A stretch of 64,000 nt of DNA from Enterobacter phage KKP_3711, in the sequence record PP579741.1, one strand, 5' to 3'. Positions 7,288 to 41,562 of this stretch are shown in pieces. Under the pieces are notes generated by a model. The model worked only from the letters and a program-made list of their open reading frames with translations, searched no databases and had not been told where the DNA came from. Within the stretch, counting starts at the first letter, position 1. The number at the start of each line of letters is the position of its first letter. A program made the translations under genes and the position numbers.

Positions 7288-7292
7288 AACTT

Positions 7293-8153: not shown

Positions 8154-8154
8154 A

Positions 8155-8428: not shown

Positions 8429-8454
8429 TTTAAATTTAACTTTAAGAGATAAAC

Positions 8455-8670
8455 ATGAAATACTTAGTTACAGCTTTATTACTTACTCTCAGTGGTTGCG
8501 CATCTTTCGATTACCCACTTAATTGTACAGGATATGTAGGTAATAGCTACTCTGCTCCAATCTTTGATTCTCGTACTATCGGTAAGAATAAAGAAGTAAA
8601 AGCAGGTGGTCCTTTCCAACTTGCTTGGGTTCCTGAGTCTACATTTAGTAAAATTACTTGCACTAAATAA
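8455..8670 (+). CDS. small lipoprotein (71 aa)
   Basis: Signal peptide MKYLVTALLLTLSGC with lipobox LSGC. Confidence 0.5.
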   Translation: MKYLVTALLLTLSGCASFDYPLNCTGYVGNSYSAPIFDSRTIGKNKEVKAGGPFQLAWVPESTFSKITCTK

Positions 8671-8678
8671 GGATAATT

Positions 8679-9134: not shown

Positions 9135-9160
9135 AGCTCTCCTACTTTCCTTCAATATTG

Positions 9161-9188
9161 CCTTAAACGCCTTGTTTAAGGCTTTTTT
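9161..9188 (+). terminator. rho-independent terminator
   Basis: CCTTAAACG-CCTTG-TTTAAGG hairpin then CTTTTTTG. Confidence 0.5.
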
Positions 9189-9192
9189 GTAT

Positions 9193-9221
9193 TTGCTTTT
9201 CAATCAAAAAGTTGTTATAAT
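9193..9221 (+). promoter_or_regulatory. T5-type early sigma70 promoter
   Basis: TTGCTT-N17-TATAAT then tctttataaattgaggag RBS. Confidence 0.55.
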
Positions 9222-9247
9222 ATCTTTATAAATTGAGGAGAAAGCAA

Positions 9248-9478
9248 ATGCCTAAATATGTGAAAGTTAAATTTATCAAAACTGCTATTAATACCTATAG
9301 CTATGAAATTCCTGAAACCCTTAAAACTGAGCGTTTAGTAATCGGTGAAGCTATTGTGGTGCCTGTAGGCAATGATATGGATTTGAAAGTTGCCTATATT
9401 GCGGGAGTTTCTAATGAATCTAATGTTAGACCAGGTATTAAAATTAAAAAGGCTTATGGCTTAGTAAGGAAAATCTAA
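9248..9478 (+). CDS. hypothetical protein (76 aa)
   Basis: ATG 9248 preferred (RBS gaggagaaagcaa) over track start 9233. Confidence 0.45.
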   Translation: MPKYVKVKFIKTAINTYSYEIPETLKTERLVIGEAIVVPVGNDMDLKVAYIAGVSNESNVRPGIKIKKAYGLVRKI

Positions 9479-9768
9479 TGTGGTTATCACAATGTAATAG
9501 GTGTGGGAATAATACCTTCCAGATTATTGATAAATCTGTATCTGAAAATGGTTTATATATTCTACACAAAGTATCAAAGTGTACTAAATGTAAAGAAGAG
9601 AACTCTATTATCTCTTTCCCTAGAGCACTAGACAGGGACACTTCTCCTACTACAGTACCTAATAAGGGTCTTGCTTGGAAGAGTAACGAGAAGTGCTTAT
9701 TTGAAGGTTTACCGCCAGGAATTTATGGTATTTCATGTCCTTGCTCTAGATGTTCTATAAAATGCTAG
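9478..9768 (+). CDS. Cys-rich zinc-finger-like protein (96 aa)
   Basis: CNRCG ... CTKCK ... CPCSRCSIKC motifs. Confidence 0.45.
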   Translation: MWLSQCNRCGNNTFQIIDKSVSENGLYILHKVSKCTKCKEENSIISFPRALDRDTSPTTVPNKGLAWKSNEKCLFEGLPPGIYGISCPCSRCSIKC

Positions 9769-9775
9769 GAGATTT

Positions 9776-10003
9776 ATGTACGACCCACATCGTGAACGGT
9801 TATACAAGAAACGTTCCAAATACTGGAACATGGGCTGTTTCTATTCCGATAACAAACGTCGTGCTGGAATTGTGTTCCGTACGCCTTGTTTATGTAGTTG
9901 TCCTATGTGTGCTGGAGTTAAAGATAACTCACCTTTACGTTATAAGTTCTCTGATATTAAAAAGTTAGAAAAAGCTAAGGAAGAAATTAATGAAGCTTTT
10001 TGA
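9776..10003 (+). CDS. small Cys-rich protein (75 aa)
   Basis: CLCSCPMCAG motif. Confidence 0.4.
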   Translation: MYDPHRERLYKKRSKYWNMGCFYSDNKRRAGIVFRTPCLCSCPMCAGVKDNSPLRYKFSDIKKLEKAKEEINEAF

Positions 10004-10175
10004 TATTCGATACAAAGGGTTATGGTTAGGCGGTAAGTCATTAGTATTTGCTGAAAATGAAGAACAAGCTTTATCTTTAGTGCGTGAAGATCCTGCTACC
10101 GTAGAATTTGAAAACGTGACTATAGAAGAAATTAAAGCAGAAGGTATCATTCACAACGATAACGGAGATTACTAA
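9990..10175 (+). CDS. hypothetical protein (61 aa)
   Basis: ORF overlapping upstream end; acidic. Confidence 0.4.
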   Translation: MKLFDIRYKGLWLGGKSLVFAENEEQALSLVREDPATVEFENVTIEEIKAEGIIHNDNGDY

Positions 10176-10226
10176 TGCTATATTTTGAGGTAAGACCACA
10201 TTAAGATACTTTAAAGGAGGTACTTA

Positions 10227-10595
10227 ATGTCTAGAACTTATCGTAAGAAATCTGGTGATCGTTACTGGCGAGATAAACATCGTTCTAAATACAACTTCAA
10301 CAGGATTAATCCACGTCGTTATATTAAAGGTAACTTCTGGCACCTGGATGGTGAAGTTATTCCTATGACTCATGAAGAAATTGAAGTTGAAATTCAGGAA
10401 GATATCCTGAAGCATGAGAAGAAAGATGGGTATCTATGGGATTCCGTTTCTAAAAATGTTAAGTGGCACTCTAACAAAATGGTTAGAGGAGCTAACAGGA
10501 TGGAACTTCATCGAGTGATGAAAGATCCAGAAAATTATGACTACAATCGTGACCATGATCTTAGAAAGAAAGGTTTGTGGTGGGTGTATGATTAA
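10227..10595 (+). CDS. hypothetical basic protein (122 aa)
   Basis: RBS aaggagg upstream of ATG. Confidence 0.5.
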   Translation: MSRTYRKKSGDRYWRDKHRSKYNFNRINPRRYIKGNFWHLDGEVIPMTHEEIEVEIQEDILKHEKKDGYLWDSVSKNVKWHSNKMVRGANRMELHRVMKDPENYDYNRDHDLRKKGLWWVYD

Positions 10596-10616
10596 TAAAA
10601 TCAGATAAAGTTTCAA

Positions 10617-10645
10617 TTGCTAAATCCCCGTCATTTTGATATAAT
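10617..10645 (+). promoter_or_regulatory. T5-type early sigma70 promoter embedded in an 11-bp inverted repeat
   Basis: TTGCTA-N17-TATAAT; TCCCCGTCATT ... AATGAACGGGGA flank the -10 and are followed by TTTTTATTATG. Confidence 0.5.
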
Positions 10646-10678
10646 ATTCTTATATTGAAATGAACGGGGATTTTTATT

Positions 10679-10963
10679 ATGTGTAAAGTAAATAAAGAAA
10701 CTGCAACCCTGATTGAACAGTTTGTACATGGTTATATTGCGGGTAGCTGCAACAGCTTTGACGAATCTCTTAATGTGTTGCATTTCTCTTTGACTGAAAA
10801 AGGTATTAAAATTTCTCTAGAAGATTTGGAAATGGAACTTAGCCAAGCACTAGAAGATGCAGAAGTGTTTTGTTGTCCAAATTGTAACTGGTTCTGTTAT
10901 GAACATGATCGTTCTGAAAATGGTGAATTATGCCGTGATTGTGACCCAGATGAGGAAGAATAA
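10679..10963 (+). CDS. Cys-rich acidic protein (94 aa)
   Basis: CCPNCNWFC ... CRDCD motifs. Confidence 0.5.
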   Translation: MCKVNKETATLIEQFVHGYIAGSCNSFDESLNVLHFSLTEKGIKISLEDLEMELSQALEDAEVFCCPNCNWFCYEHDRSENGELCRDCDPDEEE

Positions 10964-11145
10964 TGACTATACAACTTCGATTTAGATTAGCAATATTATC
11001 TGCGCTCATATCAGCTTTATGTTTTGGGGTGCATTTATACACTGGAACTATGTTTCTTTTGGCTTTAACGTGGGTATTTGTTCTTATATCCTACGGTATA
11101 ACTTTTGGTCTAGATATGTATAATAGCTGGAGAGAAGATGACTAA
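10963..11145 (+). CDS. small membrane protein (60 aa)
   Basis: Two hydrophobic segments. Confidence 0.4.
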   Translation: MTIQLRFRLAILSALISALCFGVHLYTGTMFLLALTWVFVLISYGITFGLDMYNSWREDD

Positions 11146-11302
11146 ACTAGAGAAAGCAGCAATTTTATTAATGCTTATAGGTGTAGTTGTTTCCATTTTT
11201 GTAAATCCTCTTAAATTAGCTTTTATTATCTCTATGATTTGTGTTGCTGCTGGATGGATTTGTGTTATTTGTCAACAGATAAAAGGTAGAAAACATGAGT
11301 AG
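11138..11302 (+). CDS. small membrane protein (54 aa)
   Basis: ATG overlapping upstream stop; two predicted TM helices; below ORF-track cutoff. Confidence 0.3.
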   Translation: MTKLEKAAILLMLIGVVVSIFVNPLKLAFIISMICVAAGWICVICQQIKGRKHE

Positions 11303-11873
11303 GTTATATGGACTTCACCCATTAATAGTAGATGCAATTACTGCATCTGACGAGTTAGATGACTTTGTAGTCTGGGCTAGAGGTGGAGATGGTAAATGGG
11401 CGGATCTGTTTGACATGAAAGAGTTTATTCATGTCAATGTATGGTTAGATACTAAACAAGATTGTGTAATGGCAGAAGTTGTGGCAACAGTTCAAGGTTT
11501 TGGAGGAGTGATTAAAGGTAACGCTCTTTGTATTCCTAACTGTCATCTGCAAACTGAAATTATGCAAGTATTAACTATTCTAGAGTTTTTACCTAGAAAT
11601 GATAATATTAATGATCACACTCATAAAGTCCATTTACGTTGGTTGAGAGAAGAAAGAGATCGCAGAGACAAAGAGATAGATGAAATACACGCCTCTTTAG
11701 TAGAGGATGTATCTTTTCTACCGGATGAAGAAGTAGAAGCATTTGTAAGAGATTGTTGTGGCACTTACGGAATTTCTCTAGAAAATTATACAAGTGCTGA
11801 AATCTTCACAGAAGCTGATGCTCTGCTAAAAAGAGTAGCAAGAAAAATTAGAAAAGAACGTAAGGAAGGGTAA
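11295..11873 (+). CDS. hypothetical protein (192 aa)
   Basis: ORF in track. Confidence 0.5.
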   Translation: MSRLYGLHPLIVDAITASDELDDFVVWARGGDGKWADLFDMKEFIHVNVWLDTKQDCVMAEVVATVQGFGGVIKGNALCIPNCHLQTEIMQVLTILEFLPRNDNINDHTHKVHLRWLREERDRRDKEIDEIHASLVEDVSFLPDEEVEAFVRDCCGTYGISLENYTSAEIFTEADALLKRVARKIRKERKEG

Positions 11874-11881
11874 TATTTTAC

Positions 11882-11910
11882 TTGCTAAATACCTCTCCTT
11901 TTGATATAAT
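11882..11910 (+). promoter_or_regulatory. T5-type early sigma70 promoter flanked by an inverted repeat
   Basis: TTGCTA-N17-TATAAT; TACCTCTC ... GAGAGGTA surround the -10 and +1 region. Confidence 0.5.
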
Positions 11911-11939
11911 ATATTTATAAATTAAAGAGAGGTATTTAA

Positions 11940-12245
11940 ATGAAATATTTACTCCTTGTAATTCTAGCTATCGGTTCTGCACATGCTTCCACCAAAGTAG
12001 AAGTTAAAAACAATCGAATCACTGTGCAAGAAAATGGTATCCGTCAGGACTACGGTACAGTTCGTAAAGTAGAAACTACACCATCTGGACAAGTTAAAAT
12101 CTATTCTAATAAAAACTTTTCAGGTGCAGCAGTTACTATTGATCGTTTCGGCAACACCGATGTTCAACGTTATAACAAGAGTTCTGTTTCTAGTTGTACC
12201 TATAACTGTCAGTTAGATCTAGAAGATGAAGAGGACGAAGAATGA
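11940..12245 (+). CDS. secreted/periplasmic protein with acidic C-terminus (101 aa)
   Basis: Signal peptide MKYLLLVILAIGSAHAS; C-terminus EDEEDEE. Confidence 0.5.
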   Translation: MKYLLLVILAIGSAHASTKVEVKNNRITVQENGIRQDYGTVRKVETTPSGQVKIYSNKNFSGAAVTIDRFGNTDVQRYNKSSVSSCTYNCQLDLEDEEDEE

Positions 12246-15116: not shown

Positions 15117-15814
15117 TGAACACACGTAACGCTAAATTTGTGGGCGGCAAAAGCTTGGGCAGCGCAGGGAAGCCAAATTCTGGTGCAGTGACTACTTATA
15201 TTGGAAGAAAATCTGATGGAAGTGCTGGCCATGTCTATGGAACTGTCAAACAGGAAGCTAGAAATATTTACACCTTCCATTTAGACAACGAATTGATTGA
15301 TCCAGCAGCTTATCGTGATCTTTTTAGTATTCTCCGTGATATGAGTGAGAATGATGAAATGCATCTAATGATAAACGCACCTGGTGGTCGCCTTGACACC
15401 TGTGCACAGATGGTAAACCTGATTCAAAATACAAGTGGCACAGTAATTGGTCATTTGCTAGGACCTTCTGCCTCTGCACATACTTTTATCCTACTAGCAT
15501 GTCATGCTTGGGTAATTTATCCGCATTCTAGTATGATGGCTCACAGCTACTCTGGTGGTGTGTATGAAAAAGGTAACGAGATCCTCAAATCTGCACAAGC
15601 AACTCATAAGTTCTTTGAAGAACTGGTTACAGATGTGTATTACCCCTTCTATACAGAAGAAGAGATTGAAATGATCCTCGACAATAAAGATATTCATATT
15701 CACTCTAAGGATATTGAAGGTCGTTTAGAGCGAGTTCTAGAATATCGTGATAAGCTCGAAGAAGAATTAGCTAAAAAGTTAATAATCAATATTTCTGAAC
15801 CAACTTCGGAATAA
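15116..15814 (+). CDS. ClpP/S14-family serine peptidase-like protein
   Basis: INAPGG (cf. ClpP INSPGG), GPSASAH and MAHSYSGG motifs resembling ClpP catalytic regions. Confidence 0.4.
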   Translation: MNTRNAKFVGGKSLGSAGKPNSGAVTTYIGRKSDGSAGHVYGTVKQEARNIYTFHLDNELIDPAAYRDLFSILRDMSENDEMHLMINAPGGRLDTCAQMVNLIQNTSGTVIGHLLGPSASAHTFILLACHAWVIYPHSSMMAHSYSGGVYEKGNEILKSAQATHKFFEELVTDVYYPFYTEEEIEMILDNKDIHIHSKDIEGRLERVLEYRDKLEEELAKKLIINISEPTSE

Positions 15815-24365: not shown

Positions 24366-24383
24366 CTGTATAGGATTTGCACA

Positions 24384-24836
24384 ATGAAAAATAGGGAACT
24401 CACAAATAAACTTCTTCTAGAAGAAATGCAAAACTTTCCACTAAGAAAGTTCTTAAAAGCTGATGGATCGGTCAATACTAGGAAGATAAAACTAATGCAT
24501 AAAGATTTTCAGCAAGACGCATTAGATATGATATTCCTTAGCAAAGCTATTGATAGACATGGACAGTTCTTTGGTTATGAAGAAATGTCTTTTAAGACTA
24601 TGACCCAGCAAGTGAAAATCTATTGTCCAGATTGTGATAGTTATTTCATGCAAATTGCTAGAGATCATATAGCGGGTTCAGGATGTCCTAACTGCAAACA
24701 TAAAGTAATCACTAGAAAGACAGAAGTAGGTGATTTTACAGTTCCTTGTAAATTTCATAGATGGAATGTAGTTCCTGGTGAGTACATTGAATTTTACAGT
24801 TCTAGGGGAGAAGTACTAAAGATTTCACTTGTTTAG
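24384..24836 (+). CDS. zinc-finger protein (150 aa)
   Basis: CPDCDS ... CPNCKHK; start codon overlaps a GGATTTGCACAAT motif. Confidence 0.5.
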   Translation: MKNRELTNKLLLEEMQNFPLRKFLKADGSVNTRKIKLMHKDFQQDALDMIFLSKAIDRHGQFFGYEEMSFKTMTQQVKIYCPDCDSYFMQIARDHIAGSGCPNCKHKVITRKTEVGDFTVPCKFHRWNVVPGEYIEFYSSRGEVLKISLV

Positions 24837-27197: not shown

Positions 27198-27227
27198 TTG
27201 CAGGATTCGCACATAATATGATATACT
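27198..27227 (+). promoter_or_regulatory. weak sigma70-like promoter overlapping a GGATTCGCACATAAT motif
   Basis: TTGCAG-N17-ATATAC; the 13-mer variant lies in the spacer. Confidence 0.3.
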
Positions 27228-27252: not shown

Positions 27253-28482
27253 ATGAAAATAAAAGATAAAGTAATTGAAATATGTAATAGATATATAGAG
27301 TGTCCTACTAGAACTTCCGAGCTAAGTAAAGATCAGCTAAAAATAGTTGAGTTAGTTACAAGACGTACTGCTGTTGACAAGGAAGGGCATATATTAGATA
27401 ATAAGAAGATGCTAACCACAGAAGAAATATACTCTATTAGACGTCCGGTAATTAATGGGTTTCTAGCAATACTAAAAGTACATATTCCTGAAGATTTAAA
27501 ACTATATGCAAAAGTTGCTGGAAAACATATTGTAGAAGATAAAGAATTGGTATGGCAAGATATTCATGAAGAATACTCAGCAGATCCTTGGTCTACTGTT
27601 AAAGATCCATTCATCCAATCTATACACTCTATATTTAAAGAAGAATATCAAGCAGTAAGGTATTATAAAGGTGAATCTAGAGTTAGAATATATACATCTA
27701 AAGGAGAGACTAAAACAGTATCTAAGTTTATGGAGGATGAATGGGAGTATGATAGATATCCTCAATATGATGGAGAGATTAAAAGAACTAAGTTATCTGA
27801 GGTTGTTAGTTTACAATACACTTTCGATCCTAATATTGTTCTTAAATTAGGTGGCAGAAGTTACTCTACTCTAAGTGAAGAAGAGAAGTATCTAGTAAGA
27901 TTCTTGTGTGAACCTAGAGGAGTCATATTAGAGAATAATAAATACAAAATAGATGATTCCTCAGACAAATATCTATTAGTACCTTCAGTTCATATAATGA
28001 GACTGCTAGGAAGTAATCTCACACCAACTGCAAACAGACACCATATATTTGCAGATGAAGAAATTAATTGGGATAATCAATCTTCTTCACCTAAAGAAGG
28101 TGAAATACCAACGAAGATGTATCTATCTTCAAAAATACCAATCACTAAACATATATTCCAACTAGCTGTAACCGAAGCAGTAACTTACGCCTTACTTAGA
28201 CTGTATCACTCGATTAAACAGGAAATTCCTCTAACTGTTATACAAGAAAATATACAGTTCATGTGTGTAGAATATAAAGATCAACTAGAGAAACTAATAA
28301 ATGCTTTGCACCTATTTTACATAGAAGATATTTATTTCACTATATCTAACCATCCTAGAATTGAAAGAAAAGATTTAGCGAGAGGCACTAGACAGTTTAA
28401 TCAGAGTGCAGCTAAGTTATATTTGGCGGAATTTATATACTATGCTAGAGTCGGTACATATACTTCCAAATTACGAGAGTAA
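27253..28482 (+). CDS. hypothetical protein (409 aa), AT-rich codon usage
   Basis: Own terminator/promoter pair upstream; K/I/E-rich composition unlike neighbours; last gene before the repeat region. Confidence 0.5.
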   Translation: MKIKDKVIEICNRYIECPTRTSELSKDQLKIVELVTRRTAVDKEGHILDNKKMLTTEEIYSIRRPVINGFLAILKVHIPEDLKLYAKVAGKHIVEDKELVWQDIHEEYSADPWSTVKDPFIQSIHSIFKEEYQAVRYYKGESRVRIYTSKGETKTVSKFMEDEWEYDRYPQYDGEIKRTKLSEVVSLQYTFDPNIVLKLGGRSYSTLSEEEKYLVRFLCEPRGVILENNKYKIDDSSDKYLLVPSVHIMRLLGSNLTPTANRHHIFADEEINWDNQSSSPKEGEIPTKMYLSSKIPITKHIFQLAVTEAVTYALLRLYHSIKQEIPLTVIQENIQFMCVEYKDQLEKLINALHLFYIEDIYFTISNHPRIERKDLARGTRQFNQSAAKLYLAEFIYYARVGTYTSKLRE

Positions 28483-29198
28483 GATTTCCATATAATGATA
28501 TATCTAAATTTAGAGGAAAATTTAAACTTTCTATGAAAAAATTTGGAGATTTCAAAAACGTATGTTATAATAATAAAAAGATTTCTCATGTTTACTAGTA
28601 AACAACTAGAGACATGAAAAAATCTGCGACTAGTGTCCCGGTGGTTCTAGAAATGCGTTGCACTTTCTGTGGAGCCGCCGGGGCGTAGCAACTAGTCGCA
28701 TGCAATTAATCAATAATATAAAAGTAATATGCCCGAAGTCTACTTAAAATTCAAGAGAGCTATATGAAATTTACCTTCGCTCCGCCACTGGTTACCTTGC
28801 TCTAGGGTTTTCTTAACTCTAGAGTATTTTTATTTCTAGAATTTATTTAACCCTAGAAATTTAGCATTATTTCAGCCTTGCTGAAGATTTGCCAAAGACC
28901 CCCTGTTAACATCTATTTCTCCTTTTTATCCCTACATTCATCCCACTTCTTCCCACATTTCCTTCTTATTCTGTCACTTCATTTCAACCCGCGGGAGTTG
29001 GCACCGTATGTAATCTTTGTCAACCCCTTTTAACTACCATTATCCCAAATAATTTAAAATTTTTTCTGCTAATCTACCACCAACTAAAATTTTCTCCAAT
29101 TAACCCCAAATAGGGCGGTTATAGGAGAGGGCGGTTATTTTCATAGTCGATTTTTTGAAAACCCAAATTTGAAATCTATTCTGAAAATATTTGTCATT

Positions 29199-29783
29199 GG
29201 ATTTGCACAATAGCAAATAAAACACTGTAGGATTTGCACATACCTAACCAAGTCTAGGGCAGAACAGAAGCCTCGCTTCAAATTTTGCCCTCACTCCAGA
29301 TACTTGCTCCTGAGTCACTCCTAATTACCAGGAGTTTACCTATGCAATCATACCAGTCAATTCCAAACTCTCGCAAATCTCCAATAATTAGAATAACCCA
29401 TCGGATTTGCACAATAGCAGGAGTCCAAGGATTTTTAAACGTCTCACAATATTTTCGAATCATAGTCCGGTTTCCAAATTTCGGGTCGGATTTGCACAAT
29501 GGTAACTCTAGCGTTGCCTCAGTCTGCAATAAGCCTAACTCTATCTATTAACGGTATTAGTTTTTAAGCTGCTTCTGGCCTACCTACTCTAGCAGTAGCA
29601 CATACAATTTTATCTGCTCTCGCAGGGCTGGTGGCTTGGCACCGGATTTGCCAGCGATTGGTGTAGGATTTGCACAATACCAAAAATTGCCATCGGATTC
29701 GCACAATTATCGGATTTGCACAATGCCCCGAACGCTCGGCCGCACGTAACCCATCGGATACGCACATGTCGGATTCGCACAAG
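29199..29783 (+). repeat. array of about 10 direct copies of 13-mer GGATT(T/C)GCACA(A/T)(T/G)
   Basis: Copies at 29199, 29230, 29403, 29488, 29666, 29695, 29712, 29756 and 29771 plus the variant 29642; all in the same orientation. Confidence 0.8.
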
Positions 29784-29804
29784 CGCAGGGGGTCGACCCC
29801 CTGC
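29783..29804. repeat. perfect 22-bp palindrome CGCAGGGGGTCGACCCCCTGCG
   Basis: Directly seen; centred on GTCGAC. Confidence 0.85.
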
Positions 29805-29819
29805 GGGTCTTTGATAATG

Positions 29820-29900
29820 CAAATACGAATCATTCGCGTTCAATAACCGAAATACGAATGAGAATGATTCGTATTCAGAAACGGGAGTGAGAATCACTCC
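29820..29900. repeat. inverted repeats AATACGAATCATTC/GAATGATTCGTATT and GGAGTGAgaaTCACTCC
   Basis: Directly seen. Confidence 0.75.
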
Positions 29901-29908
29901 TATTTGAG

Positions 29909-30010
29909 TTATCCACAGGTTTATACATTTTGTAAATTTGCTTGACAGGATTCTAGCGATTTTGAGGAGTTATCCACAGACTTATTAACAGGTTATCCTA
30001 CTGGATAAAT
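29909..30010. promoter_or_regulatory. DnaA-box cluster (TTATCCACA x2 plus TTATCCTAC/GGATAAA)
   Basis: Perfect DnaA consensus at 29909-29917 and 29970-29978; palindromic TTATCC..GGATAA at 29993-30010. Confidence 0.6.
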
Positions 30011-30126
30011 ATACAGTAGTTTCTGGTAGTGGGTTGTACTGATATCGATTTTAAGGCGTCTAAAACGCGCTACAGGCGTTTTAAATTTTTGGGAGGTATT
30101 AAAGGGAGGCTTTATTTCTACTAAGG

Positions 30127-30146
30127 GAAAACCGCTTGCGCGGGCT
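30127..30146 (-). terminator. rho-independent terminator for the minus-strand block
   Basis: On the - strand: CCGCGCAAGCGG hairpin followed by TTTTCCC. Confidence 0.4.
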
Positions 30147-30258
30147 AAAATTGATCGTCAAATACTTCCGGCCAGTAATGATTTATCACCGGTATTACTA
30201 TCAGACTAACGATAACACTGGGAATTATAATCCATACTAATAATTCAAGACTTGTCAT
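30145..30258 (-). CDS. small hydrophobic peptide (37 aa)
   Basis: ATG to TAG open frame on the - strand; single TM; below cutoff. Confidence 0.25.
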   Translation of the reverse strand: MTSLELLVWIIIPSVIVSLIVIPVINHYWPEVFDDQF

Positions 30259-30267
30259 GTTATACCT

Positions 30268-31941: not shown

Positions 31942-32937
31942 TTATTCTTCGGATTTTGCAATATCAGCAAATTTGCTGATATCTACTTTATCCATAACAT
32001 CGTTGATCATTTGTTCAACGTTAAGAGATTGGATTGCGCCCAACATAGCACCTTGCAGCATTGCGTCAGCTACTAATTTCGCTTTGTCATTATTTGGGGC
32101 AAAATTATCTACCGCAAATTTAAACAGGTTAGCAACAGCCAATTCACCCAGCGCCGTTTCAAGATAGCCACGCGCCATCATTGGTACTGCTGGTTTGACC
32201 AGTTTAACGGCTTGCTTAACAGCGATACGACCCGCTTCAATTTTAGCTACAGATACAGCGGCAGATTTGTTAGCAGTTACAATGTTAGATACTTTAGTCA
32301 TTTTTACTTCTCCAGTTGAATTTTGATTTTGGGTTACAGCGTTGTTAGTGTTATTGATTTTTGCGGGCTTGTCAAATTTATTTTCTAAGTAACCGCAATT
32401 ACTATATAACCAGTTGTCAGGATATTGATACTCATTCTCAGGAATAATGTACTTGTCAGGTAGTACACCAAAGTAACCGATATTAGCATCACTTACAGTA
32501 ATACTAGTAAAATCAGCATGTAACGCCATAGATAGCACGTCTGTGATCTGTTTTTTACCATCCCACTGTACCTTACCATTTAAAGAAATGGAGGCACTAT
32601 CTACAGGCCGCATAAATACAAAATGTAATTCTGTGCCGTCAAACTTTAACAAGATAGCATCAGGATTAGCTTTTCTGCGATGATTTGCAAAAAACGTATC
32701 ATTACTGTATACAAATACAGTAGCGCCATGATTTAGAAGTCCTGTTACACCTTCCGCATTATGGCGAAATGATTCTGATAATTCCCCATCTTCTGTAAGG
32801 GTGCCTACAGTATCAACGGCAATATTTACCGCCCGTGGATTACCTACACCATTGAAAAACTTTTCAAAGGCTTGATGCGTGATAGCTGTTTTATCACTCA
32901 CAAACCAATCATACGTTTGCATGATATTTCCTCTCAC
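31942..32937 (-). CDS. hypothetical protein (331 aa)
   Basis: Long ORF with RBS gagagg upstream on the - strand. Confidence 0.5.
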   Translation of the reverse strand: MRGNIMQTYDWFVSDKTAITHQAFEKFFNGVGNPRAVNIAVDTVGTLTEDGELSESFRHNAEGVTGLLNHGATVFVYSNDTFFANHRRKANPDAILLKFDGTELHFVFMRPVDSASISLNGKVQWDGKKQITDVLSMALHADFTSITVSDANIGYFGVLPDKYIIPENEYQYPDNWLYSNCGYLENKFDKPAKINNTNNAVTQNQNSTGEVKMTKVSNIVTANKSAAVSVAKIEAGRIAVKQAVKLVKPAVPMMARGYLETALGELAVANLFKFAVDNFAPNNDKAKLVADAMLQGAMLGAIQSLNVEQMINDVMDKVDISKFADIAKSEE

Positions 32938-33194
32938 TCGTTAGTTGGTAGAGCTATTATGTGCCCTAGTAATGAGATAGGCGAGAAAAAAGAAAATGTT
33001 TTTTATTCCTTGCCTAACTAACTTTTTTATGGTAGACACCCGCGCCCGTCCTTAAAACGGGCTACGCTAGCACCTATCAAGTAATACTATAATAAAGGGT
33101 GTAGCGAGAAAACGGCGTAGAACGCGATTTAGGCCGCTTAAATTTAATTGCAGTTGTTACTTCTACCATTTTACCCTGTATATTTATACAGTAG

Positions 33195-33225
33195 GATAAC
33201 CTGTGGATAAGTCAGGGGATAACGT
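33195..33225. promoter_or_regulatory. second DnaA-box cluster
   Basis: GGATAACC, TGTGGATAA (perfect box on the - strand) and GGATAACG within 30 bp. Confidence 0.55.
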
Positions 33226-33992
33226 CCCTAAATTGATCCTATAATGTCAAATCTTTTTGTGCTGTGAATAACTTTGTGTATAACCTAAATGATAGTGTTT
33301 ATCATCTAGCAAGGTAGTTCCGTTGTGTTATTATTTCTCTTTAATTTATGTGAATATTATATAATAAAAAATAGTAAGTTGGCTAATGAGTTTTTACCTA
33401 ATAATACCTAATGGTTACTAATAATTAGCTAACTATAGAATTTAATTTCCATGCGTGATCATCCCCACCAGCAAACGTAACGCCCGAAATGATTAGCCTG
33501 CTAATAGTCGCGCGGCGCAGTTATGATTAGCGTGCTAACTATAACGTCATGAAACTACTTAACCTGTTTTGGATTTGTCAACCATTATTTGCAGCATTTT
33601 ATGCTTTTTTGAAAAATCAAGCGGATAACTCATTAAATTTCATTTTTGCTTTTTGTATAAGTTACTAACAGGGTCTAAAACGCTCTGTAACGCGTTCTAA
33701 GCGATTCAGGCCAAAAGCTATGCCATTGCATAGGGTACATGCCGATCTCCTCACCACGAGCGAAATAGGTTTTGTCAATACCCTAGAAGCAAATAAAAAC
33801 AAATAAATTTCGTGACTTTTATTTATTTTCGTGTATCACGCGCCCGTTTCACTTATAAATAAGGCAGACTCCGCACGCCGTGACCCTAGCAGTTTTCTTT
33901 ACACTTCTTTACAAATATCCGCTTGCAAGGTTTAACGCTTTCCCCTAATATTTATCTCGTAGGACGGCAAGACGGAAACGAAAGGCAACCTA

Positions 33993-34324: not shown

Positions 34325-34381
34325 GATAATATGTTAATATTATCTACTTAACCCTAAACTTAAATTATGGAGATATATACC

Positions 34382-34789
34382 ATGACTACTACTAAATCCG
34401 CTAAAACTGTAAAATCTACTGCTTTTGCATGGGATGAAGAAAACACCGCTAAAGCGGGCGATCTTTATAACCAGATGGTAGAAGAAAGCGGGGTTGAATT
34501 TGCAAACGAGAATCTCAAAGTAATTGCGGAGAAACTCGGCGCTAAATCTGCGGCTGCTGTGCGTTCCAAACTGGTTAGCGCTAAAGTGTACCAGAAAGCC
34601 GATACGCCGCGTAAAGTTGGCGGCGGTAGCTCAATCCGTAAAATTCATTATGTGCGTGCTCTGGTTAAGGCCGCAGAAGCTAAAGGTCTGGAAGTTGAAG
34701 CCGATGCGCTGGATTCTCTGGAATCTTCTAAGATGTCAGCGCTTAAAATCCTTGCTGATATTGCCGGAGTTCAGGTTACAGGTGAATAA
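34382..34789 (+). CDS. pre-early hypothetical protein (135 aa)
   Basis: ATG 34382 (MTTTKSAK) in the track ORF; Ala/Lys-rich. Confidence 0.45.
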   Translation: MTTTKSAKTVKSTAFAWDEENTAKAGDLYNQMVEESGVEFANENLKVIAEKLGAKSAAAVRSKLVSAKVYQKADTPRKVGGGSSIRKIHYVRALVKAAEAKGLEVEADALDSLESSKMSALKILADIAGVQVTGE

Positions 34790-35183: not shown

Positions 35184-36857
35184 ATGTCTCGTATTTCCGC
35201 CGAAAATATTGCTCTTATCGTTAAACGTGCTGCTGGTTTAAACTATTTCGGCAAACGTCTGGACGATAAGAAAAATGAAGTCGCTGAAAAAATCAGCATG
35301 GAAGTATTCAATACGGCTAGCCGTTCGGCAGAAGTAAAACAGGTTATTGAAGATAATAAACCTGTAAAAGCTGATAAGCCAAAAGCCGAAAGGGTAGCGA
35401 AAGAAGATACTCGTCCAGTGGCTGCTGGTGCTATGAATAGTGCCGTTGATAACTGGAAAGTTAAAACGGGCAAACGCTTTATTCTTACTAGCATTCAAAA
35501 CAATACTTTCCCTCATGCTAACTTTTTAGCATCACTGGAAAAGGCCGCCGAATATCTCGGTGCTGAATTGCTGGTTAGCAAATATCTGTATAATAAAAAC
35601 GGATTCCAGAATGGGGAAGGCGGGAAAGATATTAAATTCGATTCTGCTTTCGATAAATATATTATTGAGGAAAACGTATTCCTTAATAATCGTGAATCTG
35701 GTTTCGCTTTTATGGCTGAATTAAACATTCTGCCTACTGCCTCTTATCCGCTGTCAGGATTCGCGGAAACGGCTACTGCATATGATCTTAAAGGTCTGGT
35801 AGTGGGTCACGCTAAAATTACTGCTGAGAGCGTGGCGGCGTTGAAGGGTGAATCTGTGCGCCGTTTATATTCAACTGGTACGGCTACACTGAAAAACTAT
35901 ATTCAGCAAAAGGCCGGACAAAAAGCCGAAGCGCTTCATAATTACGGTGCGCTGTTAGTTGAATTTGACGATGAAGGAACTTTCTTTGTCCGTCAACTGG
36001 AAGCTATGGATGCTAGCGGCGAATTTTACGATTTGAATCTTCATTTCACTCCTAGCGGAGTTAATGAAGTTACAGGTCATGTCTTAGCGCTGCAATATGG
36101 TGATATCCACGCCGAAAAAATTGATGATGAATGTGCTAGCGCGTCATGGAATAGTGAAGATTCATTGCTTGATATTCTCAAGCCGAAATATCAACTAATC
36201 CATGACGTTCATGACTTCACCAGTCGAAATCATCATAATCGTCAGAGCGGCGTTTTCCTTGCTGAGCAATATGCGCAAGGCCGTGACAAAGTGCTAGACG
36301 ATTTGATTGATACAGGTCGCATCCTTGAGCAAATGGATCGCCCATTCAGCCAAACGGTGATTGTTGAATCTAACCACGATTTAGCGCTCGCTCGTTGGCT
36401 TAATGACCCTAAAGCGAACATCACCCAAGACCCTGCAAACGCTCACCTATTCCATACTCTTAACGCCGCTATTTATGGTGCTATTGCAGACCGTGATACT
36501 AGTTTTAACGTTCTGGATTATGCGCTACGTCAGGTTGCAGGTTGCGATTTTGCCGCCGTTTTCCTTTCAACGGATGAATCTTTTAAACTGGCTGGCATTG
36601 AATGCGGCTGTCACGGTCATAATGGCATTAACGGCAGTAAGGGAAGCCCTAAACAATTTGTTAAGTTGGGCAAGATGAACACAGGTCATACTCATACGCC
36701 TAGCATTTACGGCGGTGTATATACTGCTGGCGTGTCTGGTAGTCTGGATATGGGTTATAACATTGGTGCATCTAGCTGGAGTCAGACGCATATCATTACC
36801 TATGCAAACGGTCAGCGTACTTTGATTGATTTTAAAAACGGTAAATTTTTCGCTTAA
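35184..36857 (+). CDS. A1: A1-like pre-early protein (metallophosphoesterase-type; second-step DNA transfer / host DNA degradation in T5)
   Basis: 557 aa vs 556-aa T5 A1; GDIHAEK(I)D and GHTHTP motifs; gene order A1-A2-dmp next to the ISS-like repeats. Confidence 0.65.
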   Translation: MSRISAENIALIVKRAAGLNYFGKRLDDKKNEVAEKISMEVFNTASRSAEVKQVIEDNKPVKADKPKAERVAKEDTRPVAAGAMNSAVDNWKVKTGKRFILTSIQNNTFPHANFLASLEKAAEYLGAELLVSKYLYNKNGFQNGEGGKDIKFDSAFDKYIIEENVFLNNRESGFAFMAELNILPTASYPLSGFAETATAYDLKGLVVGHAKITAESVAALKGESVRRLYSTGTATLKNYIQQKAGQKAEALHNYGALLVEFDDEGTFFVRQLEAMDASGEFYDLNLHFTPSGVNEVTGHVLALQYGDIHAEKIDDECASASWNSEDSLLDILKPKYQLIHDVHDFTSRNHHNRQSGVFLAEQYAQGRDKVLDDLIDTGRILEQMDRPFSQTVIVESNHDLALARWLNDPKANITQDPANAHLFHTLNAAIYGAIADRDTSFNVLDYALRQVAGCDFAAVFLSTDESFKLAGIECGCHGHNGINGSKGSPKQFVKLGKMNTGHTHTPSIYGGVYTAGVSGSLDMGYNIGASSWSQTHIITYANGQRTLIDFKNGKFFA

Positions 36858-37389: not shown

Positions 37390-38088
37390 ATGCAACAAAT
37401 CACTAATATTAATCTGTGGGATTTAGATGGTACAGTAATCAATTCCGCGCACCGTGTTTTACCTCTGCTGGATAGTGATGGTAATTTAGATCTAAATCGC
37501 TATCGTAATGAGGCCTGCAAACATGAATTAATTATTCAAGATTCATTGTTGCCACTGGTTGAATTAATGCGCCGCCAGATGTCAGCGCCTAATACAATCA
37601 ACTATATTATCACCGCTCGCGCCATGTCCAAGTCTGATTATTATTTCCTGCGTAAACAGGGATTGAGAGGTCGCAACGGTGACAATATCCAAGTATTTAG
37701 CCGTGATACTATTCATAAGTTTGCGCCGTTGGAATCGGTGAAACATATTTACAACTCTCGTGACGCTGATTATAAAGCGTTTTATTTTGATCATATTATC
37801 CGCTTACATGGTCGTGATAACGTTAATTATACTATGTATGATGATCATAAGGGTGTGCTAGAAAAGGCGCGTGAATATGGATTCAACGCCATAGACGCCA
37901 CGCAATTAAACGAGATGTTAACAATCGGCATTCAGTTAGCAAGCGAACAATTTCTGGAGGAAACTATTTCCGATGATTTAGATATTGATTATTTAAATCA
38001 AAGGTTGTCGTTTGCATGGCAACAATTAACAGAAGAAGAACAGGATTATTATTCTGTTAAGTATCCTAAACTAGCTCAGGCAGTTTAA
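37390..38088 (+). CDS. dmp: 5'-deoxyribonucleotidase (HAD superfamily), dmp-like
   Basis: N-terminal DLDGT HAD motif I; position after A1/A2 at the outer end of the repeat. Confidence 0.6.
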   Translation: MQQITNINLWDLDGTVINSAHRVLPLLDSDGNLDLNRYRNEACKHELIIQDSLLPLVELMRRQMSAPNTINYIITARAMSKSDYYFLRKQGLRGRNGDNIQVFSRDTIHKFAPLESVKHIYNSRDADYKAFYFDHIIRLHGRDNVNYTMYDDHKGVLEKAREYGFNAIDATQLNEMLTIGIQLASEQFLEETISDDLDIDYLNQRLSFAWQQLTEEEQDYYSVKYPKLAQAV

Positions 38089-38096
38089 TATAAGTT

Positions 38097-38131
38097 AGCT
38101 AACCATTCCACTTCGAATGGTTAGCTTTTTA
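38097..38131 (+). terminator. rho-independent terminator
   Basis: AGCTAACCATTC-CACTTC-GAATGGTTAGCT plus TTTTT. Confidence 0.6.
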
Positions 38132-38282
38132 ATTATAACCATGCGTGATCATTCCACTTCGAATAGTAACGCATGGTAACTATCACGGTGGGCGGTAATT
38201 AGACTGCTAACTATCCCCCACCACTGTGGACCCACCCACATGTGTAACTTTTGAAAAATGGAGCAAAAAGTGTTATTAGCTC

Positions 38283-38358
38283 ATAGGAAAGTTACATATG
38301 CATAGGAAAGTTACATATGCATAGAAAAGTTACATATGCATAGAAAAGTTACCCACAA
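38283..38358 (+). repeat. tandem 19-bp repeats ATAG(G/A)AAAGTTACATATGC x 3.5
   Basis: Directly seen at the inner boundary of the inferred terminal repeat. Confidence 0.8.
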
Positions 38359-38469
38359 TCTCACATATAATTGCACCAAATCTCCCACCCAAACCACCCA
38401 ACAGACCCACAAATTGCCACATTTAGCACGAAATTCAACGACTTATACAAGCAATCCAATTCCAACTCC

Positions 38470-38868
38470 TTATAAATATGTAATTACACGAGGTTCTGTT
38501 AAAGAGAAAGAAACTAATACTGCAATATCATCCTCTTTAATATCGTAATCATCACGGAATACTAAGCCACCATCTTCAATAACCATTTTCCATGATTGGC
38601 CTGTAAACCTTTCGAGTCTATTACGAAGAATACCCGCAGCCTCAGAATCTAAATTATGAATCTGATCATACATATCAGACAGACTAAATGGATCCGCCGG
38701 CTTGGTTTTCAAATATAAGTCTAGTAATTTCCAGCATCTGTGATTAATATCCAGACAACTAGAACTATTCCATACTAACCAGCGATAAAATAATTGTAAC
38801 ATTATAACCACCCTAGCATAAAGAGAATCATTACTACTACAAAAATTAAGAAGATTAAAGTTCCGCAT
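38470..38868 (-). CDS. hypothetical protein (132 aa), divergent from the RBP gene
   Basis: ORF in track on the - strand in the position where T5 carries llp; no signal peptide or lipobox. Confidence 0.3.
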   Translation of the reverse strand: MRNFNLLNFCSSNDSLYARVVIMLQLFYRWLVWNSSSCLDINHRCWKLLDLYLKTKPADPFSLSDMYDQIHNLDSEAAGILRNRLERFTGQSWKMVIEDGGLVFRDDYDIKEDDIAVLVSFSLTEPRVITYL

Positions 38869-39020
38869 CCAAAACTATTAATCCATGAATCGTATACTTC
38901 TCCGCGTCTCATTGGCAATACCTTTTGTGAAGTTTAAAAATTAGTTTTACATTTTCTTCTATTTATTTTATAATTATAATATATTTTAGGTAACTTAGCA
39001 AATAAAATTTAGGAGAGATT

Positions 39021-41069
39021 ATGAGCTTTTTTGCAGGAAGAATTGGTACAAAAACAGTTCTATCCCTCAACAGTGCCAGTGGAGGCGATATAAATGTCCA
39101 TCTTAACCCTAATACCAATACTATTTTCCATAGTGATATGCCATATGTCATAATCCAAGAACAATATTCCGCTAATCTTGGCGCCGTAGGTTCTGACTAT
39201 TATGTGTGTGATATGCCAGCTGCGGTAGCAAACTATGTAAGTAACACTAGCAGAATATTGATTCCTATGTTAACTGTTAATTATGGTGGCGTGGAATATA
39301 ATACTATTCTAGGTGGCGGCTCTATGTCTCTAGGTAACTGTACTGCGGGAGGTACCGAACTAAACCTAGGTACGACAATGGCAACTGCTGAGTGCGGCGC
39401 TCAGCTACGTAATATTTGGGGTTTTTCAAACGACGTTGTTTGGGATACAGGTTACTATACTAAAAGTAGTAGTTTATCTGATGTATTAAGTATTGGTCAA
39501 GGTACTGGTAGAAGTATTGATATAATGAGTGCTAGTCTTTATTACGCTGCTACTTACAGTACAGGCGGAGGTGGTATAGGTATTCCTCCAATTCCAGATT
39601 TAGATCAGTCATACCTATATTTAGCTAGTGGTGCTATCTACAGTGGTAGAATTCCTTCCGTGGACCAAGATGGTAGACTTAGATGGGCTGATGAAGATAG
39701 ACAATATAATACAAAGATAGGTTCTGTTACTCGTACTATTGCTATTAATAGCCACTTCCAAACTCCAACAGGTAGAAGCTTAGGTCATTCTAAATTCTAT
39801 GTTCGCAGAGGTATTGCTGCTCTAGTAAAAGCTTGGCGTGTTAGGTATAACCAAGGAGCAGGTACAGGAGAAACTTTAGTACAAAGATACACTAATAGTT
39901 TTTATGCTCAGTCTGGTGATCGTATAGATGAAGTATGGCAGCGTACTAGTTTCCATTCTAATACCAGTACTGTTATCGCTCCAGATACTACAGGTACTTA
40001 TCTAAACGTAGATTATAAAGCTAGCCTGTATAATATGGTAACGCCTGTCAGAATGACTTGGTTTGTAACTAATGTTACATATAATGAGTCAGCAGGTACT
40101 TATTCTGCTAGTAATCCCTTTACTGTAAATAATGACATTAGATTGTCTCCTTCTGATTTTATTATTAAAGGTGTTAATTTAGGAACTACTGCATGGAGTT
40201 TCTTAATGCAACTTTCTGCTGGTGCCCTTTATAACGCTAATGGCCGTGTTGTGATGGGAGCTAATGGTAGTAGAAGTACTGCCAAGAATGGTAGTTCAGC
40301 AGCAGCTATTCCTATTCCTTACATGTCTGGGACTACCGAAAGATTTATAGGCGGAGATACTACGGATGGTTGGCAGTTACATAAATTAGCATTGTATCAA
40401 TTCAATAGAAATAGACAATGGAAAGTAGATACTAGATCTAATTCAATTAGTAATGCAGAAGGTGATGTATGGAGTCCCGGAGTTAATCCATTAAAAATAT
40501 TTGCTGGTAATAGTTCGGTGGTTAACGTAGGAGGTAATACATTAAACTCCAATACAGGGGAAGTATTATTGACTACCGTTAACTTAGGTATGAATACTAA
40601 TGTACGAGCAGGTTCGGTAATTTGTTCCGTTCAGCTAAGGGATGCCACAGTATTTACATCTGGGGGCTATGGGTCTTTTGTAATATGTTCTCCTAGACCA
40701 GGAAATCCAGAATCTTTGGGACTATCTGCTAGTACTTCTAGAATGAGGACTTCGGGAGGTATTGGTGCAGTACACCATCATTTGTTCTGTACACTTCCTG
40801 TTGGTAGATTTGTGCCTGTTTATGCTATAAGAACCGCTGGATATAACTTTGTGTTAACTCCGTCTTTCCAGCCGCTATGGTTTACCCCTAGTAATGTTCA
40901 AATGAGTAATAGAACTCTAGAATGTTCTTTCATAATTTATTTGAAAAATGAAGGTAATGGTAACGTAGGTATTTATTGTGGTACTGGTCGTAACGCAGAT
41001 GCCGCGGCTATGGGTAACTTCTCTTTCATTTTACCAAACTTACGTATTTCTGTACAGCGTCTCACTTAA
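39021..41069 (+). CDS. receptor-binding tail protein (pb5-like)
   Basis: N-terminus MSFFAG...SGGD..H.NP...TIFHSDM and C-terminus ...QRLT match T5 pb5 from memory; position upstream of terminase; central region divergent. Confidence 0.7.
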   Translation: MSFFAGRIGTKTVLSLNSASGGDINVHLNPNTNTIFHSDMPYVIIQEQYSANLGAVGSDYYVCDMPAAVANYVSNTSRILIPMLTVNYGGVEYNTILGGGSMSLGNCTAGGTELNLGTTMATAECGAQLRNIWGFSNDVVWDTGYYTKSSSLSDVLSIGQGTGRSIDIMSASLYYAATYSTGGGGIGIPPIPDLDQSYLYLASGAIYSGRIPSVDQDGRLRWADEDRQYNTKIGSVTRTIAINSHFQTPTGRSLGHSKFYVRRGIAALVKAWRVRYNQGAGTGETLVQRYTNSFYAQSGDRIDEVWQRTSFHSNTSTVIAPDTTGTYLNVDYKASLYNMVTPVRMTWFVTNVTYNESAGTYSASNPFTVNNDIRLSPSDFIIKGVNLGTTAWSFLMQLSAGALYNANGRVVMGANGSRSTAKNGSSAAAIPIPYMSGTTERFIGGDTTDGWQLHKLALYQFNRNRQWKVDTRSNSISNAEGDVWSPGVNPLKIFAGNSSVVNVGGNTLNSNTGEVLLTTVNLGMNTNVRAGSVICSVQLRDATVFTSGGYGSFVICSPRPGNPESLGLSASTSRMRTSGGIGAVHHHLFCTLPVGRFVPVYAIRTAGYNFVLTPSFQPLWFTPSNVQMSNRTLECSFIIYLKNEGNGNVGIYCGTGRNADAAAMGNFSFILPNLRISVQRLT

Positions 41070-41079
41070 GGAGAAATTA

Positions 41080-41562
41080 ATGAGCACAGATGTATTAGTA
41101 CCAGAAGAAATGTCACCTGAAGGTATGCGTGTCGTTGAGGCCTACCTTGATTGTGGCTCTGATATCACCCAAGTAGGAGATTACTTGGGTATGCCTCAGG
41201 AAACGGTTATGGCAATCTATAATCGTCCTGAAGTTAAACATTATATTACCACTCTTTTTATGGAGAGTGGTTTCCGTAATCGAGATAAGTTCTTTGGGGT
41301 TATGGATGAAATTGTTAAGAAAAAGCTAGAAGATTTAGAAGAATCCGAATTAGGTTCTGATGCAGATATTCTTGAGATTATGAAAGTATACCATAAAATG
41401 AAGATGGATGAAATGGCTATGCAAATCAAACTACTAGAAGCTCAGACTAAGGTAAGAACACCAACTACTCAAACTAATATTCAGAATAACTTCAATCTTC
41501 CAGGGTCGGATGATGGCAACTATATGGCGCTTATGAATCGACTTTCAGGAGCTAGAAAGTAA
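41080..41562 (+). CDS. terminase small subunit candidate
   Basis: ATG after RBS ggagaaatta; HTH-like segment ITQVGDYLGMPQETVMAIY; immediately upstream of terL. Confidence 0.45.
   Translation: MSTDVLVPEEMSPEGMRVVEAYLDCGSDITQVGDYLGMPQETVMAIYNRPEVKHYITTLFMESGFRNRDKFFGVMDEIVKKKLEDLEESELGSDADILEIMKVYHKMKMDEMAMQIKLLEAQTKVRTPTTQTNIQNNFNLPGSDDGNYMALMNRLSGARK

Follow-up and report, generated by a model that had tools for sequence, protein, structure and literature searches.

The injection stop signal region of Enterobacter phage KKP_3711

The stop of bacteriophage T5 DNA entry at 8% and its restart have been an open question since the 1960s. Here we describe the corresponding region of Enterobacter phage KKP_3711 within a stretch of 64,000 nucleotides (nt) of sequence record PP579741.1, hereafter termed the window, in which early and pre-early genes converge on a non-coding gap of about 1.8 kb. 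This gap harbours an array of short repeats of a single orientation, designated DRD repeats, which is followed by a predicted nick site, a GC-rich palindrome, nested inverted repeats and paired DnaA boxes (Table 1). On the basis of its sequence, the window belongs to a T5-like phage (Demerecviridae) that is a divergent relative of T5, the T5 gene order being read in reverse. Synteny, sequence homology and the element-by-element architecture agree that the region is almost certainly the known non-coding injection stop signal (iss) region or Repeat Region 3 of T5, and the array matches the published DRD repeat. A preliminary description of the window had already read the locus as a T5-type injection-stop-like region and had listed about ten same-orientation copies of a 13-mer in 600 bp, a perfect 22-bp palindrome, nested inverted repeats, at least two perfect DnaA boxes and the absence of coding sequence, all of which the analyses presented below bear out.

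In the annotation of the T5 genome (AY543070), the left terminal repeat extends from 1 to 10219 and the iss from 9140 to 10149, a nick is located at 9748/9749, and the first early gene is placed at 10936. Both the iss (Repeat Region 3) and the inner end of the terminal repeat thus fall within the T5 counterpart of the window gap. The region was aligned to T5 by blastn, an alignment to the right end of the first-step-transfer DNA having been suggested in the preliminary description: window 29827-30103 is 74% identical to T5 9600-9324 (E 1.5e-43), and window 29662-29893 is 68% identical to T5 9869-9638 (E 5e-25). Both lie inside the annotated iss, and the homology covers its inner half. A comparison of 25 T5-like phages by Davison described Repeat Region 3 as consisting of "nine DRD repeats", DRA, palindromes and an IRD'-spacer-IRC' module in which DnaA boxes are paired 3 bp apart and which is mirrored by an inverted partner (IRC-spacer-IRD) some 3 kb further into the repeat; Repeat Region 3 overruns the terminal repeat by 270 bp (bioRxiv 10.1101/866236). 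The injection stop acts in cis from a site within this region. DRD has been given no function in the T5 literature, and according to a 2023 paper on BF23 such sites have yet to be studied experimentally.

The window shares with the T5 iss (Heusterspreute et al. 1987; Wang et al. 2005; Davison 2015, 2020) a convergent gap of 1-2 kb between the pre-early and early genes, a single-orientation array of nine to ten copies with the same 14-nt DRD core and polarity, the DRA repeats, nested palindromes of the GAATGAGAATCATTC type, and DnaA boxes that are paired 3 bp apart, repeated at 61 bp and accompanied by an inverted partner module about 3.2 kb inside. In both phages the last DRD copy adjoins A/GCGCAGGG (the slash marks the nick) and a GC-rich palindrome, which in T5 reads GCGCAGGGCAATTGCCCTGC. 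Read on the strand of the window, the T5 gap has the motif repeated in the same way, the last copy being followed by AGCGCAGGGCAATTGCCCTGC, by palindromes of the GAATGATAATGA type and by DnaA boxes. The two regions differ in several respects. The window has fewer palindrome units, and its DRD copies carry a lineage-specific AT at the 3' side. In the window, a C-rich tract lies ahead of DRA and of the outer pair of DRD copies, whereas the T5 tract is found within the repeat, where it separates the outer from the inner DRD group, and the module order has therefore been rearranged between the lineages. Furthermore, the flanking sequence is largely unalignable: in a megablast search only 19-20% of the region matched any record, and only about 20% of the 10.5 kb around it can be aligned to the nearest records, which are Demerecviridae, with 76-78% identity. 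No A2 in the phage collection shares more than 59% identity with the A2 protein of the window. A closer metagenomic relative, a 113.9-kb contig designated L061, was found via its A2 protein (79% identity); it is collinear with the window and 77% identical across 29107-30031.

Several tests concerned the coding capacity of the region. The open reading frames (ORFs) of 40-95 amino acids inside it had no PHROG match and are not conserved in L061, the closest relative, and the gene caller left the corresponding gap of L061 empty; hidden small genes were rejected on these grounds. A structured RNA was rejected as well, as a search of the region against Rfam gave no match at E ≤ 1. Promoter-like matches numbered 16, compared to 13.6 in shuffled sequences, and none of them coincides with a DRD copy, so that the array was also rejected as a set of promoters.

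Table 1 Elements of the injection stop signal region and associated genes in the KKP_3711 window
Feature	Position	Strand	Remarks
Non-coding gap	28483-30267		early (+) and pre-early (-) genes converge; equivalent to T5 AY543070 9157-10936
DRA repeats (two)	29113-29138	+	GGGCGGTTAT at 29113 and 29129, followed by conserved ATTTTTTGAAAAC spacer
Outer DRD pair	29196-29240	+	ATTGGATTTGCACA at 29196, GTAGGATTTGCACA at 29227
Isolated DRD copies (two)	29400-29498	+	ATCGGATTTGCACA at 29400, GTCGGATTTGCACA at 29485
Dense DRD cluster	29641-29781	+	copies at 29641 (degenerate), 29663, 29692, 29709, 29753, 29768
Predicted single-strand nick site	29746-29790	+	GTAAC-N31-A/GCGCAGGG; nick between 29782 and 29783
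Perfect 22-bp GC-rich palindrome	29784-29805		CGCAGGGGGTCGACCCCCTGCG
Nested inverted and direct repeats	29814-29905		GAATGAGAATCATTC type; homologous to T5 DRE/DRC/pal block
IRD'-spacer-IRC' module	29909-30016	+	TTATCCACA (29909), GGT, TTATACATT; 61 bp on, TTATCCACA (29970), GAC, TTATTAACA
Inverted partner module, Repeat Region 2 (IRC-spacer-IRD)	33176-33283	-	3.2 kb inside
Outlying DRD copy	27200-27213	+	GCAGGATTCGCACA; promoter-like spacer 40 nt upstream of ORF 27253-28482; position conserved in L061 (2692)
Outlying DRD copy	24370-24383	+	ATAGGATTTGCACA; overlaps ribosome-binding site and ATG of ORF 24384-24836; conserved in L061 (768)
Transfer RNA genes (21)	0.7-8.4 kb		
Long run of ORFs (early genes)	ends 28482	+	
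Pre-early ORFs	from 30268	-	
A2	34367-34789	+	pre-early, DNA-binding, essential for second-step transfer; candidate ligand; phrog_1725; PF26822 Phage_T5_A2 on homologues
A1	35184-36857	+	DNA transfer protein, A2 partner; phrog_1745, E 7e-224
dmp-like gene	37390-38088		followed by pb5-type receptor-binding protein gene (together 37390-41069)
Small terminase ORF	~40978-41562		

The DRD array

The array is composed of nine strong DRD copies and one degenerate copy (ACCGGATTTGCCAG) between 29196 and 29781, all of them on the plus strand. The 13-mer of the preliminary description, GGATTTGCACAAT, occurs in five perfect copies in the region (29199, 29403, 29488, 29666 and 29712) and in three more with up to two mismatches (29230, 29695 and 29771), likewise all on the plus strand; across the whole window it has 15 matches compared to 2.0 expected, a number reached in none of 100 shuffles. 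With a tolerance of one mismatch, a search for the 11-nt core GGATTYGCACA yielded nine copies in 29199-29781 and one with a single mismatch (GGATACGCACA, 29756), and the 14-nt core of the family, RTCGGATTYGCACA, has 12 matches on the plus strand and none on the minus strand of the 64 kb, where 0.9 are expected. The spacings between copies are 31, 173, 85, 178, 29, 17, 44 and 15 bp; as these are not multiples of the helical turn, helical phasing of the copies was rejected. The dense cluster is the GC-richest part of the region (50-53% GC). The outer pair is collinear with the T5 copies at 10350 and 10315, which are located just outside the T5 terminal repeat, and neither L061 nor phage Eos has a counterpart of the copy at 29400 where the sequences align, so individual copies turn over. 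In addition to the array, the window contains two outlying copies within gene-expression signals (Table 1), and T5 and its close relatives possess a lone DRD copy about 1.9-2.4 kb outside the repeat boundary.

For a refinement of the motif, 184 distinct copies with their contexts were collected from 48 T5-like loci. The 14-nt core is invariant within diverged flanks, and every copy points the same way in all 48 loci. Positions outside the search pattern are also fixed, namely T at -2 in 100% and C at -1 in 96% of the contexts, together with G or A at -3, and an A-rich patch is present at -11 to -9. The motif is conserved in related phages, one of the points on which the preliminary description had made its reading depend; the repeat it described is real, but the register of its 13-mer has to be corrected, since the conserved unit RTCGGATTYGCACA begins 3 nt further to the left and the trailing AT is specific to the window phage. 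In a three-way alignment of the window, L061 and Eos, the cores were more conserved than the spacers, with 84% versus 72% identity to L061 (p = 0.002) and 66% versus 34% identity to Eos (p = 1e-11). In these comparisons, the DRD cores are shown to be under selection as short, polar, phage-specific sites.

The distribution of the array was examined at three levels. Positions 1-63000 of T5 contain ten perfect copies, all within 9762-12163 and on one strand, and none elsewhere in that stretch. A scan of IMG/VR for two adjacent copies returned 45 stretches only, all on T5-like contigs of 95-123 kb, and the same scan of 596 Gb of bacterial and archaeal sequence returned only seven contigs, all of them from metagenome-assembled genomes. 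The DRD array is a signature of T5-like phages and not of hosts or plasmids. Phages of Escherichia, Salmonella, Klebsiella and Yersinia share one and the same core. Vibrio phage River4 possesses six variant copies (CGGTTTTGCACC or CGGATTCGCACC), the last of which is located beside /GCGCAGGG, Vibrio phage D149 has six TTYGCACAT units, and Proteus phage RP7 and Providencia phage PR1 lack an array, a single DRD-like copy (CGATTACGCACA) being retained next to the nick consensus. The DnaA boxes are canonical in all four of these phages and conserved across all lineages examined. That the DRD motif drifts with the phage lineage while the DnaA boxes remain constant argues for a phage-encoded ligand.

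This pattern also bears on the proposal that a host protein, either cytoplasmic or membrane-associated, binds the DRD sites and together with DnaA on its boxes forms a roadblock to DNA entry, which would extend the DnaA model of Davison. The T5 stop is not known to require the synthesis of phage proteins or to occur when the DNA is ejected in vitro, and both its cis-acting nature and the identity of the core in phages of four enterobacterial genera, as well as the general conservation of the DnaA boxes, are in line with a host factor. The motif is altered, however, in the Vibrio phages and nearly lost in the Proteus and Providencia phages in spite of their canonical DnaA boxes, and the 596-Gb scan revealed no comparable arrays in bacterial chromosomes. 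To our knowledge, no consensus of an enterobacterial regulator matches the DRD core. We therefore regard a host ligand as improbable.

The nick site and the palindromes

The T5 genome carries annotated major nicks at 9749/9748 (7.9%), 22336 and 39746. These three nicks in the first 63 kb have GTAAY-N~29-R/GCGCAGGG in common, which goes beyond the published consensus Pu/GCGC. The extended consensus occurs in the window at 15126 and 29746 only, both on the plus strand, compared to 0.10 sites expected, and the window encodes a protein that is 83% identical to a protein of the Phage_T5_Nicking_endo family (Pfam). The predicted site between 29782 and 29783 is probably the homologue of the 7.9% major nick of T5, and the palindrome CGCAGGGGGTCGACCCCCTGCG begins one base after it. 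The second site (15126-15169, GTAA-N31-A/GCGCAGGG) contains the sole other RGCGCAGGG of the window, 14.6 kb from the first; it is probably homologous to the T5 18.5% nick, which in T5 is 12.6 kb from the 7.9% nick.

The last DRD copy adjoins the nick consensus in T5, the window, L061, locus L063, River4, RP7 and PR1, and motif and nick are on the same strand. This arrangement would be expected if DRD were the recognition element of the phage nicking endonuclease and the array directed the single-strand interruptions. The T5 nicks at 22336 and 39746 have no DRD copy, though, and neither does the nick-like site of the window at 15161, which argues that DRD is not the signal of the nickase; this function is largely refuted by the other T5 nick sites, and we consider it scarcely credible.

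Downstream of the perfect palindrome, the nested repeats comprise 20-nt inverted arms (29822-29841 and 29856-29875) that are 90% complementary, and a hairpin at 29883-29901. Folded as single-stranded DNA, the segment 29760-29910 has a z-score of -5.6 relative to shuffled sequences. In Providencia phage PR1 (locus L051, 5417-6467), nine tandem 8-bp GACGTCYA units are found where T5 and the window have palindromes.

The T5 iss palindromes (locus L003, 9554-9713) resemble Fur boxes: TGATAATGATTCTCA agrees with TGATAATnATTATCA in 13 of 14 positions (T5 9658), and GATAATGAGAATCA is also present there. A perfect 7-1-7 Fur box is located inside T5 dmp at 233 (233-247), and the sole Fur-like site of the window (32421-32440) lies inside an ORF. 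Fur is not mentioned by Davison (2020; bioRxiv 10.1101/866236). Fur boxes were rejected as an explanation of the palindromes, because those of the window match in fewer than 11 of 14 positions and the resemblance is not conserved, a point that also counts against a host factor.

The DnaA-box modules

The window contains six perfect DnaA boxes compared to 0.74 expected, and none of 100 shuffles reached this number. Two of them, at 29909 and 29970, open the box pairs of the IRD'-spacer-IRC' module (29909/29921 and 29970/29982), the boxes of each pair being 3 bp apart and the second pair spanning 29970-29990. The module ends with an inverted-repeat arm (29942-30016), to which the 75-nt arm 33176-33250 of the partner module is 79% complementary. 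The partner module has a perfect box at 33202 and the pair TTATACACA-AAG-TTATTCACA at 33263-33283, all on the minus strand.

Same-orientation direct repeats beside clustered DnaA boxes are the textbook layout of an iteron-type replication origin as in P1 oriR, pSC101 or F oriS, in which a phage initiator would bind the DRD sites with the assistance of DnaA, and T5 encodes a putative origin-binding protein, T5.108. Several other properties of the locus speak against an origin: transcription converges on the region rather than diverging from it, the flanking ORFs have no match to initiator families, no AT-rich unwinding element adjoins the GC-rich dense cluster, and no replication proteins are synthesised in the first step. 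Moreover, electron microscopy places the T5 origins near the centre of the genome (cited in bioRxiv 10.1101/866236). A replication origin is thus very improbable. There is also a wider resemblance to iteron origins and to ParR-parC centromeres such as R1 parC with its ten 11-bp direct repeats: about ten co-oriented short repeats are common to all of them, and DnaA boxes are nearby in the case of the origins, but the irregular spacing (15-178 bp), the lack of an adjacent initiator or partition gene and of an AT-rich element, and the convergent transcription set the DRD array apart, so that the likeness is one of analogy only.

The boundary of the terminal repeat and the DRA motif

Ten contigs contain both terminal repeats, and for these the inner boundary was located by comparison of the right contig end with the left repeat. 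It is found in eight genomes of the Tequintavirus type at ...GAGTTTTTA/GAGCCACAGAAATTTTCACTTGTCAAGC (here the slash marks the boundary) with identical spacing, and DRD copies are present outside at -131 and -96 (in five of the eight also at -268) and inside at +246 to +457. The divergent locus L022 has DRD copies on both sides of the boundary with wider spacing; in the pair L004/L046, the boundary was placed elsewhere, only 40 bp ahead of the first inner copy, and the outer copies are at -338 and -303. In Klebsiella phage GZ8, four copies are present on either side of the annotated repeat end. In relatives with mapped ends (T5-type and Sugarlandvirus), the DRD array straddles the physical end of the repeat.

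In the assembly of the window itself, the terminal repeat occurs only once and adjoins the right end of the unique region, as is evident from the dmp-like gene, which runs straight into the pb5-type gene; the assembly is either collapsed or circularly permuted, and the length and ends of the repeat therefore cannot be read from it. The phage collection contained no close relative with mapped ends, and homology gives two conflicting estimates of the boundary, ~28998 (a weak match to T5 10200-10108) and ~29312 (collinearity of DRA-DRD-DRD with T5 and Eos, just before GAGTCAC). The DRA block, which is the best-conserved part of the outer region, is 83% identical to T5 10421-10369 and is conserved in Eos, in L061 and in numerous records of Tequintavirus and Epseptimavirus. 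The left genome terminus is predicted at ~38232 from the homology of this site to T5 position 1 (...CAGTGGACA/), and T5 has GGTGGCGGTTAG 25-40 nt from its left end. A DRA-like sequence, GGGCGGTAAT, is located at 38190 in the window, ~35 nt inside the predicted left terminus (38190-38232). The DRA-type motif (GGCGGTTA) beside both repeat edges is a candidate recognition element of the terminase. A 19-bp tandem repeat (CATAGAAAAGTTACATATG, 3.7 copies, 98% match) occupies 38282-38352, immediately beyond this terminus, and is followed by a C/A-rich tract.

The position of the array raises the question of packaging. The small terminase might bind the DRD sites in the manner of the lambda cosB R sites or the SPP1 pac boxes and thereby place the initiating cut or make the repeat end; given that injection starts with the left end, packaging would be expected to start with the right one, and the array of the left repeat near the stall would be a by-product. 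Co-oriented multi-site arrays suit ring-shaped small terminases, and no T5 packaging site was found in the literature. The inner boundary falls between the outer and inner DRD sub-arrays in all ten genomes with both repeats, nine of which agree on its place, GZ8 has its copies evenly on both sides, and PR1, which has no array, carries another repeat, pyrimidine-rich and 25 nt long, on both sides of its annotated repeat end. On the other hand, DRD copies are missing at the left genome terminus, which also requires a precise cut, the DRA-type motif is the better candidate, the outlying copies are located 2-5 kb away in gene-expression signals, and the boundary estimate of ~28998 puts every copy of the window on one side. 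Binding by the small terminase is thus rather unlikely. With lambda cosB R1-R3 (bound by gpNu1) and SPP1 pacL/pacR (bound by G1P), the array of T5-type genomes and GZ8 has in common several short sites within a few hundred bp of the cut at the presumed first-packaged end, and as in pacL/pacR the array flanks the cut on both sides in these relatives. It differs from them in its absence from the other genome end and in being more numerous, with about ten sites over 600 bp to 2.4 kb; it is not claimed to belong to the terminase sites.

A possible role of the DRD sites in second-step transfer

If the window is read from right to left, as the DNA enters the cell, the DnaA-box module comes first and is followed by the nested palindromes, the GC-rich palindrome with the nick consensus, a polar array of about ten DRD sites and the two GGGCGGTTAT repeats. 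The DRD sites are thus clustered distal to the block of predicted nick, palindromes and DnaA boxes relative to DNA entry. The preliminary description had considered an iteron-like array of open ligand and had named an A2-like protein, DnaA or another host factor; the iteron-like array stands, and the small terminase has to be added to the list. We rank A2 first, then the small terminase and then a host factor. That the ligand is a phage-encoded sequence-specific protein is probable, and that this protein is A2 is a tentative proposal, which we nevertheless place ahead of its competitors. Among the essential pre-early proteins, A2 alone is a predicted DNA binder, and no explanation exists for the part it plays in second-step transfer. 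The location of the outlying DRD copies in a promoter-like spacer and at a ribosome-binding site suits a regulator-type protein better than a packaging enzyme.

In the mechanism that we favour, with some reserve and at less than even odds, the DRD repeats would be recognition sites of A2. The left end would enter the cell, and transfer would stall in or near the block of DnaA boxes and palindromes. A2 and A1 would then be made from the DNA already inside, and A2 would load onto the co-oriented DRD sites immediately distal to the stall. Together with the membrane-associated A1, it might re-engage or process the DNA, whereupon the remaining 92% would enter.

Several points weigh against this mechanism. 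RP7 and PR1 keep A2 and A1 with only one DRD-like copy beside the nick site, so the array is not obligatory for A2-dependent transfer. If the DNA stalls left of the nick, the cytoplasm, where A2 is, would not yet contain the DRD sites. The confidently predicted model of A2, which is helical with a predicted local distance difference test (pLDDT) score of 81.7, had no fold match in the PDB at E <1, and A2 had no match in the local Pfam copy or in a PDB sequence search. The best fold match, a helix-turn-helix domain of an insertion sequence (IS) transposase with a probability of 0.66, gave no lead on the mode of binding; judged by the model, sequence-specific binding by A2 is not supported structurally. 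The straddling of the repeat end by the array fits a role in packaging equally well, and for T5 it has never been mapped by experiment which elements of the region, if any, bring about the injection stop. On another reading, which is on balance unlikely, the array lies outside the stop signal altogether and is instead the site of packaging and end generation of T5-like phages, where the small terminase or an A1/A2 complex would bind both sides of the repeat edge; if true, this would explain the near-equal length of the first-step DNA and the terminal repeat. On the same footing, the array may be a centromere-like handle for an A2-A1 assembly that pulls in the remaining DNA.

The DRD elements and their conservation among T5-like phages have already been published, and the specialist picture is unchanged. 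What is added here is the corrected 14-nt core, the extended nick consensus adjoining the palindrome, the drift or loss of the array as opposed to the constancy of the DnaA boxes, the straddling of the repeat end by the array, and the DRA-type motif beside both repeat edges. The retention of the DRD core, the nick consensus, the position of the palindrome and the geometry of the paired DnaA boxes in a divergent relative sharpens the view of which bases are selected and provides a defined 14-mer probe.

Further observations in the gap

Three additional features of the gap were noted. At 28798-28857, 3' of the last early gene, an inverted repeat of 23 nt (TCTAGGGTTTTCTTAACTCTAGA / TCTAGAATTTATTTAACCCTAGA) is accompanied by a T-run and looks like a terminator. 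It is followed at 28895-29110, upstream of DRA, by a strongly C-rich and G-poor tract in which the GC skew falls to -0.65. Finally, CTAGA/TCTAG words recur throughout the gap in both the window and T5.

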